Shown: one piece after another, positions 13,469-57,465 of the stretch | Layout: each line of letters begins with the position of its first letter | Numbering within the stretch: the stretch's first letter is position 1 | IMG/VR virus record: IMGVR_UViG_3300020478_000004 | Coordinates: 32,001 to 96,000 of that record | DNA: 64,000 bases | Source of the DNA: a virus | Strand: one strand, 5' to 3' | The notes under the pieces: generated by a model | Told to the model about the DNA's origin: nothing | Databases searched by the model: none | What the model saw: only the letters and a program-made list of their open reading frames with translations | Program-made: the position numbers and the translations under genes

Positions 13469-16400
13469 ATGGCTAATTTAGTATCACCAGGCGTACAGGT
13501 TCAAGTTATAGACGAAAGTTTCTATACACCAGCTGAACCGGGTACAGTACCTATGTTATTCTTTGTATCCGCACAAGATAAGAAAAACGGTGCAGGAACA
13601 GGAACAGCTACAGGTACAACTAAAAAACAAGCAGGAACACCATTCTTGCTAACATCACAAAGAGAATTAACAGAAACGTTTGGAGATCCAACGTTTTATA
13701 CAGACACTAATAACAATCCAATCAATGGAAGTGAGCTTAACGAATACGGTTTACAAGCGGCTTATTCTTACTTAGGTGTAAGCAATAGAGCATTTGTAAC
13801 AAGAGCAGATATTAATACATCTGAACTAATTGCTTCAGCAACAGAGCCTGCGGCAAATCCAGCAGATGGCACACATTGGTTTGATACAAAAAATACATTA
13901 TGGGGCATTTTTGAGTGGAATTCAAATGCGGCGACTGTTACTGGTGGACAGACGTTTACTAATAAAATTCCAACTGTAATTACAGATAGTACAAAAGTAA
14001 CAGGTGGAGTACCTAAGACATCCGTTGGCGCTGTAGGTGACTATGCCGTTGTTGCTACTACTACACTAAACAAAGTATATTACAAAAATTCAGCAGGAAC
14101 ATGGGTACAAGTTGGTTCAGCAGATTGGATTAAAGCTAATGCAACAGTAATTGGAACAGAAAGTAATCCAACTATTACTAACGCGGCTAGTATGAGCGTT
14201 AATGGTACAGTAGTTACATCAGGTGGAACAGCTTTAGCAGATGTAGTAATTGCACTTAACGCCGCAGGTATTGCCGGTGTAACTTCAGAAGTTGTTGATG
14301 GTAAATTTGAAATTTACTCAACAGGCGTTGATGTTGTATTAGCAACTAACAGTTCAACATTACTTGCAGAAATTGGTTTAACAGCGGCAACACATAAAGC
14401 GCCAGCGTTACAAATTTCAGCACATACTGATGTACCAACATTTAAATCTACTGATACAGCACCAAGACCAACAGGGTCGGTTTGGATTAAAACTACACAA
14501 CCTAACTTAGGTGCTCGCTTTAGAGTTAAAAAGTTTAATGGAACTACAAATCTTTGGGAAGATGTTGTAGCACCAATGTACACAGATGGACACACGGCAT
14601 TGTTTAATTTAGATAAAGCAGGCGGTGGTGTAAATCTTGCAGTTGGTACTTTATACGTTAATTATAATAACGCTGAAGAATCATCAACTGTAGCAGATTT
14701 TAAAATTCACAGACGTACTAATACTGGAAACACAAGTATTAAGAGTTCAATAATTGCGGCACAGCTTACAGCAAACACTTATGCATTTAATATTCAAGAG
14801 TCAATTGTTGGTCAAGCGGCTCTTAGTGCAGACAAAACAGTTAGTGTAACTACAACAGCGGCATCAAGCGATGCTGATGTTATTGCAGGCGCAATTAACG
14901 CCGCAGGGTTTACTAACGTTGTTGCTTCAGTAGACGCTTCAAACAGAATCGTTATTGAACACAATGATGGTGGTGAGTTCCGTATTAAAGATACAGGTGG
15001 CGTACTTAACTTGGCAGGATTTAGTGCTTTTGTAAATGCTAACTCCGGTACACCTAATTTATATACAGCACCAACAGGTGACACAACACACGACTTTGTT
15101 GCAAGTAACTGGCAAGTATTAACATATACTGCTTCAGCTACGGCTCCAACTGCTTTAACAACAGATGGTAGACTATGGTATAGTTCAATTGTTGATGAAG
15201 TTGATATTATGATACACAATGGTACTACTTGGGTAGGATATTTAGATTCAACTAGTCCGTATTTTGCGGCGGCTGATTCAGATAAAACTGACCCAGCTGG
15301 ACCAATTGTTTCAGCAACAGAGCCAACTTTGCAATCAGATGGAACTGCACTTAAAAACGGTGACATTTGGATTTCAACAGCTGATACTGAAAACTATCCA
15401 AAAATTTACAAATACAATGGCACAACTCTAAAATTTGTACTTGTTGATAACAGCGACCAAACAACTGAAGATGGAGTTGTTTTTGCAGATGCACGTTATA
15501 ATACAGCAGGTGCAAATTCAGATAAAGCAGGAACTATTGCTTCATTACTAGTAAGCAACTTTGTTGATATTGATGCTCCAGATCCAGCACTTTATCCAAA
15601 AGGAATGTTACTTTACAATCTACGTAGAAGCGGATTTAATGTTAAGAAATTTGTTCGTAATCACGTAAACACAGCAACAGATAACATTCGATTTGGCGAC
15701 GAGTCGCAATCAGGTTACTATGCACACCGTTGGGTTACTGAATCAGCTAACCAAACAAACGGTGCAGGTAGCTTTGGACGTAAAGCACAACGCAAAGTTA
15801 TTGTTCAGGCATTACAAGCTCTAGTAAATAGTAATCAAAAAATTAGAGATGATGAATCAAGAATCTTTAATTTAATGGCTTGTCCTGGTTATCCAGAACT
15901 AATTGGTGAAATGGTTACATTAAACACTGATAGAGGTTTAAGTGCATTTATTATTGGTGACAGTCCATTTAGACTAACACCAGATGCAACTACACTTAAT
16001 AACTGGGGTAAGAATACTGCTTTAGCAGTTGAAGATAACGACGATGGACTTGTTACAAGTGACGAATACTTAGGTGTGTTTTATCCAAGTTTATTCACAA
16101 GTGATAACGCAGGTAACAATGTAGTTGTTCCAGCAAGTCACGGTATACTTAGAACATTTGCATTGAGTGATCAAGTTTCGTTTCCATGGTTTGCACCAGC
16201 AGGTACAAGACGTGGTGGTATTACAAACGCTACAGCGGCAGGTTACATTGACAGCGAAGGCGAATTTGTAAGTACTGCACTTAACGAAGGTCAACGTGAT
16301 ACATTATACAGCAATAACGTAAATCCAATTACGTTCTTAACAGGCGCAGGCCTTTTAAACTTTGGTCAAAAAACAAGAGCCAAAAATGCTTCAGCGTTAG

Positions 16401-31442: not shown

Positions 31443-32495
31443 ATGGAATGGGACCCCAGACATTTGAAACCCGAATTAAAAAATTTAGTTAATAACATTT
31501 TAGCCGCAGTTGCACAAGGCAAAGCTAAAGATGCCGTTAATGCTGTAACTGAAGCATTTGAAGATGTTAAATCTCCTGAATTAATTTGTGTTGATAGTGG
31601 AATTAAAAAAGTAGAGAAAAAAGAAAAAGCACCATTTGGATTAGTAGATTCATTTGTAATGGCAATGGCTTTAGGTTCCAATGGAAAATATATTAGAGCA
31701 GATGATTTAGACTGGAACGATAAAACTCCTTTATTAGTTAGAGGTTTAGGCAAAACTAAAATTATTAAAAGATGTATTGAAGAAGGTAGAGATTTTTACT
31801 TTATGGATACAGGGTATATAGGAAATAATCCTAGTCCTTTAAATCCTAATGGTAAAAAGATGTATCATAGAATAGTTAAAAATGCATTACAAAATCTTCA
31901 TATGCCGGCAAGAGATAGAATTGAAGATAAAGGAAAAGATCCTCGTGATGATGATCAAACTGCACAAAGAAAATTAGACGCTAACTTATTAATAAAAGCT
32001 CCCGAACATTATAGTGGTGAAAGATGGAAACGTCTTGGTATACAATTTAAAGACGTTACAAATGGTAGAAAAATACTTGTTGTTCCTCCTAGTGAAAAAG
32101 TTATGAAATTCTTTGAATTAGATTTAGACGTATGGATTGAAAATACTATTCTAGAAATTAAAAAGCACACACAACGTCCAGTAGAACTTAGAAGAAAACC
32201 AAGTAGAGAAGCTAGAGTTTCTACACAAACAATGGAACAAGCATTAGATGAAGATGTACATTGTATGGTTACATTTAATAGTATTGCGGCTTTAGAAGCA
32301 ATGATTTATGGTAAACCTGCGTTAGTATTAGGTCCTAATTGTGCTCAAGATCTTTGTGAGAAAAAGATTGAACGAATTGAATTTATAAAACATCCTGGAC
32401 GAAAACAACTTACATGGCTTTGTCGTTATTTGGCTAATAATCAATTTACGTATGACGAAATGCTTAATGGATATGCTTGGAGTAAAATAAAATGA
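31443..32495 (+). CDS. Capsule-biosynthesis-like (KpsS/KpsC-like GT-B) protein
   Basis: C-terminal VTFNSIAALEAMIYGKPA motif; paralogous to two neighbours. Confidence 0.5.
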   Translation: MEWDPRHLKPELKNLVNNILAAVAQGKAKDAVNAVTEAFEDVKSPELICVDSGIKKVEKKEKAPFGLVDSFVMAMALGSNGKYIRADDLDWNDKTPLLVRGLGKTKIIKRCIEEGRDFYFMDTGYIGNNPSPLNPNGKKMYHRIVKNALQNLHMPARDRIEDKGKDPRDDDQTAQRKLDANLLIKAPEHYSGERWKRLGIQFKDVTNGRKILVVPPSEKVMKFFELDLDVWIENTILEIKKHTQRPVELRRKPSREARVSTQTMEQALDEDVHCMVTFNSIAALEAMIYGKPALVLGPNCAQDLCEKKIERIEFIKHPGRKQLTWLCRYLANNQFTYDEMLNGYAWSKIK

Positions 32496-56091: not shown

Positions 56092-56188
56092 GAAAGACGA
56101 ACACGACACTATTCGGACATGGCCGCAAAATCATGTTCAAACCATTAAGACACCGCTTTTTATATCATTTGATAAATACTACTTTAGT

Positions 56189-56461
56189 ATGCCGAGAGAA
56201 CTCTTAAATACTAAAAACCACAAAACACCAACACATACCATCTCCAATACACAATATCAAGACGTAGAATTAGTCAAACTTATGACTGAAGCATTAACGA
56301 ATAAGAACAAGTATACTGTTCGTGTAGAAGGTTGGAATATAGAGTACAAACGGCATTGGACCTCTAGCATTAACAGTATCACTAATTGGGACAATTTAAA
56401 CTTTAATTACAACCAAAAAGCTGATACATTTGTCTTTCAACATAGGAGCAACGGACAATGA
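56189..56461 (+). CDS. Asn-rich 90-aa ORF coupled to the aaRS-like gene
   Basis: ATAAATA at 56172-56178; 13 Asn in 90 aa; ATGA overlap with the next gene. Confidence 0.55.
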   Translation: MPRELLNTKNHKTPTHTISNTQYQDVELVKLMTEALTNKNKYTVRVEGWNIEYKRHWTSSINSITNWDNLNFNYNQKADTFVFQHRSNGQ

Positions 56462-57372
56462 CCCAACTAATTAACCCACAAGCCTTTACCGAAACTGTCG
56501 GCCGTTTACGGTCGTTTTTTTTGGACAAGGGATTTTACGAAGTACACACTCAAAACAGATTAAGCATACTAGCCGCTTGTGAAGACCCGTTTAACGTAGC
56601 AACATACAATTACGCAGACCAAGTATGGCCTTTACCCCAAACAGGCCAGATGTGGCTTGAACACGAATTATTAAGTAGCCCCTCTTCGAAGGGGTTTTTT
56701 TGTGTCTCCACATCCTATAGGCAGGAACCAAATGCAATACCAGGAAGACATGATATCATCTTTCCAATGTTTGAATTTGAGATGCCTGGTGATATAGATG
56801 ACCTTAAGAAGATGGAGTATGAATTATGTGAACACTTGGGCTTTAAAAAGCCTACTGAAAAAACTTATGCTGAATGGCAAAAGCATTACGGTCATGCTGA
56901 AGACTATGAAATGACTGCGGAAGAAGAAACCAAGATGCACCAAGAGTTTGGTACAACCATGATAACAGACTTTCCTGAAATGACATCACCTTTTTGGAAC
57001 ATGAGTAGAAATGATGATGGCAAAACTGCAAAGAAGATAGATGTTATACTAGGTGGTATGGAAACAATAGGAAGTGCGGAACGTTCATGCGATGTAGAAA
57101 TGATGCGTGATACATTCCATAGCATTACAGACGGAGAGTACAGTAAGCTACTTTATAAACTGTTCAGTCAGGAACGTGTTGAAGCAGAGCTAGAAAAGTT
57201 TCTAGAGTTTGACTTCTTTCCGAGAGTTGGTGGCGGAATAGGATTAACTCGTTTGTTAAGAGCAGTTGAAGATTATAAAAGTAAAAAAGTAAAAACTGAT
57301 GATGACCGTGAAATTTTATATAATAAACGCCGAGAGATGAATAGGCAAAGCGTACACGGAATACTTCAATAA
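56458..57372 (+). CDS. Stand-alone class IIb aaRS catalytic domain (AsnRS/AspRS paralogue, like archaeal-type asparagine synthetase A)
   Basis: Motif 1 (LRSFF..GF.EV.T), motif 2 (SYRQE...RH...F.MFEFEM), ETIGSAER, motif 3 (GGGIGLTRLL); no OB-fold anticodon domain. Confidence 0.82.
   Translation: MTQLINPQAFTETVGRLRSFFLDKGFYEVHTQNRLSILAACEDPFNVATYNYADQVWPLPQTGQMWLEHELLSSPSSKGFFCVSTSYRQEPNAIPGRHDIIFPMFEFEMPGDIDDLKKMEYELCEHLGFKKPTEKTYAEWQKHYGHAEDYEMTAEEETKMHQEFGTTMITDFPEMTSPFWNMSRNDDGKTAKKIDVILGGMETIGSAERSCDVEMMRDTFHSITDGEYSKLLYKLFSQERVEAELEKFLEFDFFPRVGGGIGLTRLLRAVEDYKSKKVKTDDDREILYNKRREMNRQSVHGILQ
56499..56522 (+). terminator. Intragenic terminator-like hairpin 1
   Basis: CGGCCG-TTTA-CGGTCG followed by T8. 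Confidence 0.5.
56677..56701 (+). terminator. Intragenic terminator-like hairpin 2
   Basis: AGCCCCT-CTTCGA-AGGGG followed by T7. Confidence 0.55.
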
Positions 57373-57378
57373 GGCTTT

Positions 57379-57465
57379 TCCGGGGTGGTGGAAACGGTAG
57401 ACACGATAGCCTGTTTAGCTATTGCTTGGGAGAGCGTGAAGGTTCGAATCCTTCCCCCGGAGCCA
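57379..57465 (+). tRNA. Atypical tRNA with anticodon GTT (Asn), long variable arm and encoded CCA
   Basis: Acceptor TCCGGGG/CCCCGGA, G73, CCA; D arm GTGGAAACGGTAGACAC; anticodon arm ATAGC-CTGTTTA-GCTAT; 15-nt variable region; T arm GAAGG-TTCGAAT-CCTTC. Confidence 0.9.

Follow-up and report, generated by a model that had tools for sequence, protein, structure and literature searches.

An AsnRS-like enzyme and an atypical tRNA(GUU) kept together in ocean phages, with a possible role in pyrimidine synthesis

Within a 64,000-nucleotide stretch of viral DNA (positions 32,001 to 96,000 of IMG/VR record IMGVR_UViG_3300020478_000004; hereafter the window), a gene for a protein resembling the catalytic core of asparaginyl-tRNA synthetase (AsnRS) is closely followed by a gene for a tRNA with a GUU anticodon and a long variable region. 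We found that this enzyme and this tRNA are kept together in hundreds of ocean phages and that relatives of the enzyme in bacteria and giant viruses work without the tRNA and sit with genes of pyrimidine synthesis. Because of the latter relatives, the phage protein is probably a new metabolic enzyme with a private tRNA and not one half of an ordinary charging pair. Our preferred reading, which we put forward tentatively, is that the enzyme makes a pyrimidine precursor, probably acting on asparagine (Asn), and that the tRNA is a host-charged Asn carrier that does not decode. The DNA comes from a T4-like myovirus and encodes a tail sheath, a tail tube, a large terminase, and UvsW-type and DnaB-type helicases; the window has a GC content of 34%, and the IMG/VR record to which it belongs spans 108.5 kb at an estimated completeness of 31%.

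Linkage of the enzyme and the tRNA in marine phages

A scan of IMG/VR seeded with the protein returned more than 590 loci, and linkage was counted in the best 80 of these. The same tRNA lies ∼6–130 nt downstream of the enzyme gene in 77 of the 80. The cultured cyanophages P-SSM2, P-SSM5, and P-SSM7 likewise have both enzyme and tRNA, the gene being annotated there only as "tRNA ligase" and the RNA being labeled "tRNA-Asn" in GenBank. In the reverse test, a degenerate pattern of the tRNA was scanned over IMG/VR and gave 117 matches: the enzyme is immediately upstream in 103, one match overlaps the enzyme, nine are cut by a contig end, three are a related tRNA that lacks the enzyme, and one is spurious. 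Counted over the assessable loci found with this pattern, enzyme and tRNA occur together in 104 of 108 (96%). The surroundings of the pair differ from phage to phage: P-SSM2 has a cytidylyltransferase and a lipase there, in P-SSM7 the pair lies between gp23 and gp3, and the window differs from both. Because of these differences, we conclude that the pair moves as a block and travels as a cassette among marine T4-like myoviruses.

A reading of the window from its letters alone (the sequence-only reading) had proposed that a small Asn-rich upstream open reading frame (uORF), the enzyme, and the tRNA form a co-evolved unit that converges on Asn. Enzyme and tRNA are indeed co-inherited, as the counts above reveal, with the type II GUU tRNA staying linked among viral homologues, and the AsnRS-type pocket of the enzyme and the GUU, G73, and U1-A72 of the tRNA, described below, fit a convergence on Asn. 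The uORF, however, does not belong to such a unit. Its homologues occur in just 3 of the 80 loci (L010, L011, and L062; 34–41% identity, all with the ATGA overlap), and with 4.6–5.7% Asn they are not Asn-rich; only the window copy is (13 of 90 residues, or 14.4%, compared with a mean of 5.9% for long reading frames of the window).

Within 3 kb on either side of the enzyme homologues of LR756501 and LR756508, two huge-phage records, there is no tRNA. A megablast of the locus against phage records gave no match, and a scan of viral contigs for related loci with two distant single proteins gave nothing. One of the enzyme-less copies of the tRNA (L345, 6067–6144, minus strand) lies between a 158-residue reading frame of unknown function and a thymidine kinase gene, with PhoH beyond. 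In the RefSeq record of P-SSM2 (L001, NC_006883.2), the tRNA-Asn feature PSSM2_199 is annotated at 164094–164179, inside a coding sequence, whereas the actual tRNA is found ∼2 kb earlier, directly after PSSM2_198, at 162082–162169 (L001 3813–3900); the coordinates of the PSSM2_199 feature look stale.

The enzyme, the tRNA, and the wider family

The enzyme matched PF00152 (tRNA-synt_2) with an E-value of 6e-18 (65.3 bits against a gathering threshold of 25; profile positions 28–293 of 308), and the Pfam search gave no other family above threshold. Because the match starts at residue 13, there is no room for the N-terminal OB fold of canonical AsnRS, and the AlphaFold model (AF2; mean pLDDT 94) contains only a class IIb catalytic fold and a C-terminal helix. 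In Foldseek comparisons with AsnRS and aspartyl-tRNA synthetase (AspRS) structures, the model reached query-normalized TM-scores of 0.62–0.72 (E ∼1e-17), and its fold is that of the class IIb domain of AsnRS from Pyrococcus horikoshii (1X54), human (8H53/8TC8), and Brugia (2XTI), albeit with only 17–20% identity to AsnRS/AspRS catalytic domains. The protein also matched the unannotated phrog_29758 over all 267 of its 267 profile positions (E 2.4e-128). A profile built from 45 relatives and searched against the PDB matched AsnRS at 2.5e-15, archaeal/eukaryotic AspRS at 6e-12, the archaeal-type asparagine synthetase AS-AR at 1.7e-6, and EpmA at 4.5e-5. No curated NCBIfam equivalog came near its cut-off: the asnS models TIGR00457 and NF003037 gave 31.3 bits (cut-off 342.6) and 30.6 bits (cut-off 414), the AS-AR/AsnA model NF005053 gave 12.5 bits (cut-off 322), and the EpmA model TIGR00462 gave 20.4 bits (cut-off 286.9).

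The pocket is of the AsnRS type. The segments ACED and QTGQMWLE of the enzyme align with ACEG and with QSGQLYIE or QSSQLYLE of AsnRS, the family-wide motifs ACE(D/G) and GQ(M/L)x(L/I)E are common to AsnRS, and the AspRS forms PEGAR and QSPQxxK (for example QSPQQYK), including the Lys of the latter, are absent from the family. Motifs 2 and 3 match those of AsnRS, and the ATP, Mg, Arg, and motif 3 residues are intact. On account of these AsnRS-form motifs and intact residues, the protein looks like an active ligase derived from AsnRS. It nevertheless differs from AsnRS in lacking the OB-fold anticodon domain, in a motif 2 loop that is 1–2 residues longer, in a motif 3 of the form R-x-GGGIG-x-TR in place of H-x-G-x-G-x-G-x-(E/D)R, in the ties of the family to PyrD, PyrE, and PyrF, and in its occurrence in genomes with another route to Asn-tRNA. 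Among known stand-alone class II cores, AS-AR (3P8T, 1NNH) and AsnA are of similar size (294 residues), descend from an AsnRS/AspRS ancestor, and became metabolic enzymes that act on Asp or Asn with ATP, but their sequence match to the phage enzyme is weak and their genomic context is different; neither is known to have a dedicated tRNA. EpmA/PoxA (GenX), a paralogue of LysRS that lysylates EF-P, likewise consists of a class IIb core, has no anticodon domain, and transfers its activated amino acid to a target other than tRNA, whereas the pocket of the phage enzyme is Asn-type and not Lys-type. Relatives are usually 273–280 residues long, compared with 304 for the window copy, which ends in a Lys/Arg/Asp-rich extension of ∼30 residues (window 57271–57369; predicted helical, pLDDT 65–81) that most relatives lack.

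The tRNA of the window scored 51.4 bits against Rfam RF00005 (gathering threshold 29) and was called Asn(GTT) by ARAGORN. Its variable region (positions 44–48) is 14 nt long where an ordinary class I tRNA has 5 nt. The D stem is 3 bp long, CCA is encoded, the acceptor end has U1-A72 and G73, and the anticodon loop reads CUGUUUA, with U at position 37. An alignment of 48 distinct homologues keeps the cloverleaf, with 99.7% of cells paired and changes on both sides at 17 of the 24 pairs. U1-A72, G73, U8, G18-G19, the T loop, and G34-U35-U36 are invariant in these 48 tRNAs. U33, by contrast, is kept in 45 of them and lost in the other 3 (in ∼10% when the set is widened to 114), and position 37 holds a pyrimidine in 36 (32 U and 4 C) and A in the remaining 12. 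The variable region of cassette tRNAs ranges from 10 to 36 nt and also varies in sequence, and all except the P-SSM2 and P-SSM7 type encode CCA. Anticodon GUU and G73 are identity elements for AsnRS and AspRS. U1-A72 is a determinant of the bacterial amidotransferase (PMC1635274). The conserved set is thus what proteins read on tRNA-Asn, whereas drift has affected U33 and the purine at 37, which are needed on the ribosome. Known tRNA-Asn is a class I tRNA that feeds the ribosome, with a short variable loop, U33, and A37; the cassette tRNA shares its GUU, G73, and U1-A72 but not these loop features, and judged by this pattern it does not appear to be an ordinary decoder.

Both kinds of tRNA are present in one 133-kb phage contig (G241), in which the cassette tRNA sits by the enzyme and a canonical tRNA-Asn lies 44 kb away (Table 1). 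The long-arm tRNAs carry a near-fixed loop, GUACUGCAAUAUAUUU or CUCGCAAAGUAUUU, on a co-varying stem (alignment A1, columns 46–82; L004, L013, L029, and many others); the window copy is short-armed. Recognition by tRNA-guanine transglycosylase was considered as a cause of the conserved GU and is unlikely, because that enzyme requires U33 as a determinant and U33 is not conserved here.

Outside the phages, the core is repeatedly joined to pyrimidine enzymes. In at least nine clusters, 53–56% identical to the window protein, an N-terminal dihydroorotate dehydrogenase (PyrD) is fused to the core, and in one protein, 42% identical, the core is followed by a C-terminal orotidine monophosphate (OMP) decarboxylase (PyrF). 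A scan with one fusion protein revealed the core in dozens of giant-virus contigs, none of which has the special tRNA; L087 among them carries a PyrD fusion and L104 a PyrD/PyrF/core cluster. A cellular scan, which covered one genome per prokaryotic species, gave 410 matches at 52–62% identity, in Saccharibacteria and other Patescibacteria, Aureispira and other Bacteroidota, Dependentiae, and Rickettsiaceae and other Proteobacteria. The special tRNA is absent from these carriers, apart from a few phage-like contigs binned into metagenome-assembled genomes. Of 71 cellular loci, 14 have a PyrE-PyrF fusion gene within 5 kb of the core and 5 have PyrD within that distance, and several Bacteroidota loci have the gene order PyrE-PyrF (minus strand), PyrD (plus), core (plus).

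In a tree, the family forms a single clade with 99% support, set apart by a long stem of 1.7 changes per site. The clade divides into phages, Patescibacteria, and giant viruses with Bacteroidota and Proteobacteria, and the tRNA-linked members are confined to the phage group. The window protein falls inside this clade, which also holds the members fused to PyrD or PyrF or adjacent to PyrD or PyrE-PyrF; to these fused and adjacent members it is 53–60% identical. About 100 positions are conserved at 90% or more and are identical in 86 tRNA-linked and 123 other sequences, which are told apart by about a dozen minor group-specific positions; because the ∼100 positions are identical in both sets, the same chemistry is assumed for the phage copies.

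The carriers also lack an early step of the pathway. PyrB (aspartate carbamoyltransferase) was found above cut-off in none of 14 core-carrying cellular genomes, compared with 68 of 78 core-less genomes from the order of G006 and all 14 controls, and the chance that all three carriers of that order would be without PyrB is ∼0.003. Searches of G005, G006, and G042 gave no CarB (the large carbamoyl-phosphate synthetase subunit), and those of G005 and G006 gave no PyrC (dihydroorotase) either. G004 and G005 each have PyrD and PyrF. Because PyrB, and in some genomes also CarB and PyrC, were not found, no visible candidate other than the core is left in these organisms to supply PyrD with its substrate.

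Possible functions of the cassette

We infer the substrate, the reaction, the charging enzyme, and any contact between enzyme and tRNA as follows. The cassette would be a single transcription unit, probably expressed late, and its protein an ATP-using ligase that arose from the AsnRS catalytic domain with loss of the anticodon-binding domain. The family would act upstream of PyrD in uridine monophosphate (UMP) synthesis, where aspartate carbamoyltransferase is missing, and would form dihydroorotate or its immediate precursor from Asn, or possibly from Asp, without carbamoyl phosphate. Because the pocket is Asn-like and dihydroorotate is formally Asn with a carbonyl bridging both nitrogens, the chemistry that we propose is ATP-dependent formation of dihydroorotate from Asn and CO2; formation from Asp or carbamoyl-aspartate through activation of the β-carboxyl, as in AsnA, would be less likely. 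The phage copy could then serve as an auxiliary metabolic gene that feeds PyrD, PyrE, and PyrF of the host for DNA synthesis.

As for the tRNA, it keeps the U1-A72, GUU, and G73 of tRNA-dependent Asn formation by non-discriminating AspRS and GatCAB, and the host would charge it, with GUU and G73 serving AsnRS or a non-discriminating AspRS and U1-A72 serving GatCAB. The charged tRNA would serve the enzyme as a private Asn carrier or as a scaffold. A possible parallel is the staphylococcal tRNA-Gly for peptidoglycan bridges, which has kept its synthetase identity, has lost translation features, and serves a metabolic enzyme; that tRNA, however, is class I and cellular and serves Fem transferases, whereas the partner in the phage would be a synthetase-derived ligase. 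A stricter form of this idea, which we regard as improbable, is that host AspRS and GatCAB, or AsnRS, load Asn onto the ribosome-unfit phage tRNA and that this Asn, still bound or once released, is converted with CO2 and ATP to dihydroorotate. If true, such a tRNA-coupled route would bypass carbamoyl-phosphate synthetase, aspartate carbamoyltransferase, and dihydroorotase, together with their feedback control.

Several observations weigh against a pyrimidine-precursor enzyme with a carrier tRNA. We know of no class II core that carries out the proposed reaction; the conserved residues of the pocket suggest that an α-amino acid is bound in the canonical way, and activation of the α-carboxyl offers no obvious path to dihydroorotate. 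The enzyme has no phage-specific surface changes. A few phage loci have the enzyme without the tRNA (L026/L027, L054, and L126), and three have a similar class II tRNA(GUU) without the enzyme (L345, L288, and L338). Neither PyrD nor PyrF was found in P-SSM2, P-SSM7, or the window's incomplete record, so that the phage product would have to feed host enzymes; P-SSM2 and P-SSM7 gave only a weak phosphoribosyltransferase match. Among bacteria, PyrB, PyrD, and PyrF were all not found in the complete, core-carrying Patescibacteria genomes G001 and G002, and in Saccharimonadia the core follows no clear pattern with PyrF or AsnRS: of 101 genomes, 5 have the core, 11 an AsnRS-like gene, and 85 neither, and PyrF is present in 3 of the 5 carriers compared with 35 of the 96 others. 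Finally, the nearest neighbor of the core in 18 of the 71 cellular loci, all in the Patescibacteria clade, is a tRNA dihydrouridine synthase.

In these loci (among L175–L245), the dihydrouridine synthase gene (PF01207, E 2.5e-62; for example L195, 8221–9192) is ∼200 nt 5' of the core, and DnaX is found just downstream of the core in 18 loci; the genomes concerned are without PyrB, PyrD, and PyrF where tested.

Some of the same observations are expected if the enzyme is linked to pyrimidines and the tRNA is mechanistically unrelated to it, the two being adjacent for co-expression only. The tRNA might then be a tRNA-Asn for translation, a nuclease-resistant or decoy tRNA with an altered anticodon loop, or an element for 3' processing or stability. 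The enzyme does work without the tRNA in giant viruses and bacteria, its lack of phage-specific surface changes and the three enzyme-less tRNA copies (one by a thymidine kinase gene) agree with such independence, its gene lies inside a phage tRNA array at many loci, and phage tRNAs with altered anticodon loops do evade host anticodon nucleases. We nevertheless consider this explanation somewhat unlikely. A spacing of 6–25 nt between enzyme and tRNA is kept down to ∼55% enzyme identity and across differing genome contexts, and the enzyme is upstream of 96% of assessable tRNA copies; moreover, an invariant GUU, G73, and U1-A72 would be superfluous in a processing element, a tRNA that decodes should have retained U33 and a purine at 37, and the G241 phage has a canonical tRNA-Asn in any case. 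The loss of decoding features bears equally on a private aminoacylation pair (the sequence-only reading had named an orthogonal enzyme/tRNA pair as one option), in which the core would charge only this tRNA with Asn by way of U1-A72 and G73 and the tRNA would decode AAY, giving an AT-rich phage its own supply of Asn-tRNA. The intact, AsnRS-like sites for ATP, Mg, and the amino acid, the tight linkage, the encoded CCA, and an invariant U1-A72 and G73 within reach of a catalytic core all speak for such a pair. It is quite unlikely, however, since it leaves the PyrD/PyrF fusions and the PyrB-less carriers without explanation, the enzyme occurs without the tRNA in cells already equipped with AsnRS (G005) or GatCAB (GatB is present in 5 of 5 genomes tested), the protein reaches 31 bits with the NCBIfam asnS model, whose cut-off is 343, and the core does not stand in for AsnRS among Saccharimonadia. 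The invariance of the anticodon, too, is at odds with an enzyme that lacks a domain for reading it. The suggestion that the long variable arm replaces anticodon reading in an orthogonal pair is doubtful for related reasons: it is the arm that varies, the enzyme has no extra domain to read it, tRNA-less bacterial and giant-virus enzymes keep the same ∼100 positions, and one phage has a normal tRNA-Asn.

The least probable of the explanations, and a very unlikely one, is that the cassette combines an archaeal-type asparagine synthetase (Asp + NH3 + ATP to Asn) with an ordinary extra tRNA-Asn, the two raising Asn and Asn-tRNA levels for late proteins. An AsnRS-derived core that stands alone and is about as large as AS-AR would suit this function, the family profile does match the AS-AR chains 3P8T (1.7e-6) and 1NNH (6e-5), and viruses often carry asparagine synthetases. 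The profile is, however, far closer to AsnRS (59.5 bits) than to AS-AR (30.6 bits with 3P8T), and the score against NF005053 is far below its cut-off. The distribution of the enzyme is also not what would be expected of AS-AR/AsnA, namely where AsnRS is present and free Asn is needed: no asnS match above cut-off was found in G001–G004, and in Patescibacteria without AsnRS free Asn would be unusable for translation. G004 already has six full-length AsnB-family matches, and the pyrimidine fusions and neighborhoods would be left unexplained. The fusion, neighborhood, and phyletic ties to pyrimidine synthesis also weaken the broader proposal of the sequence-only reading, that the unit supplies late protein synthesis with free Asn or Asn-tRNA, and so does the occurrence of the family in Patescibacteria with neither AsnRS nor AsnB (AsnB was not found in G001 and G002).

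A limited literature search gave no paper on this combination of enzyme and tRNA, nor any that places an AsnRS-like enzyme in pyrimidine synthesis. Ocean metagenomes contain thousands of family members, and the family extends to giant viruses and at least 14 bacterial genomes without PyrB. If the inference of a pyrimidine-precursor enzyme is true, the family would represent an unrecognized entry into UMP synthesis, would change the metabolic reconstructions of many uncultured bacteria, and would add a new auxiliary metabolic gene to marine phages; the tRNA would be a second example of one withdrawn from translation to serve metabolism. If, on the other hand, a minimal synthetase and its tRNA are what the cassette encodes, it would be a natural anticodon-independent orthogonal pair of relevance to genetic-code engineering.

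Layout of the locus and minor observations

The sequence-only reading had described four elements here, a promoter, the uORF, the enzyme reading frame, and an abnormal GUU tRNA, and all four were recovered at the positions collected in Table 1, including the ATGA coupling of a class IIb core that lacks the OB-fold domain.

Table 1. Features of the cassette locus and of related phage loci
Feature	Position	Strand	Basis or remark
ATAAATA, T4-type late-promoter-like motif	56172..56178	+	Motif match only; 11 nt before uORF start
90-aa uORF	56189..56461	+	TGA overlaps enzyme ATG as ATGA; occasional neighbor
Stand-alone AsnRS-derived class IIb catalytic core, 304 aa	56458..57372	+	PF00152, phrog_29758, structure model
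87-nt class II tRNA, GUU anticodon	57379..57465	+	Rfam, ARAGORN; 6 nt past enzyme stop
Canonical 76-nt tRNA-Asn, U33 and A37, in ten-tRNA array	L374 1498-1573 = G241:C1:101262-101337	-	
tmRNA-like gene	L007/L008 1101-1483; L019 1097-1478		ARAGORN

ATAAATA is depleted three-fold in the window (15 matches compared with 47.7 ± 7.7 expected), and several further copies sit just 5' of virion reading frames, including those for tail sheath and tail tube (for example 13423 before the tail sheath frame at 13469, 17497 before 17509, and 23666 before 23678). Because the motif is rare in the window and most of its other copies precede virion genes, the copy ahead of the uORF is a plausible candidate for a T4-type late promoter. 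Searches of Pfam, NCBIfam, and PHROG with the uORF gave no family above threshold. The possibility that the uORF is a split-off OB-fold anticodon domain, raised by its VRVEGW motif, was rejected; no family was above threshold, and the uORF is missing from 77 of the 80 loci.

Two terminator-like hairpins lie within the first 250 nt of the enzyme coding sequence (56499–56522 and 56677–56701, plus strand), followed by T8 or T7, and the region has four terminator-like sites compared with 1.3 expected. Phage homologues have the two hairpins and their T runs as well, with the stems changed on both sides (GGCCG/CGGTC compared with GGCCT/AGGTC, and CCCC/GGGG compared with GCCC/GGGC). Because the T runs encode a conserved Phe-Phe, these elements may be a by-product of coding; alternatively, by analogy with pyrBI, they could mediate UTP-sensitive attenuation, as would suit an enzyme of pyrimidine synthesis. 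Three phage loci have a further RNA gene ∼1.5 kb 5' of the enzyme, called by ARAGORN as permuted and tmRNA-like (tag ANDNALDNVTF...ALAA; Table 1).

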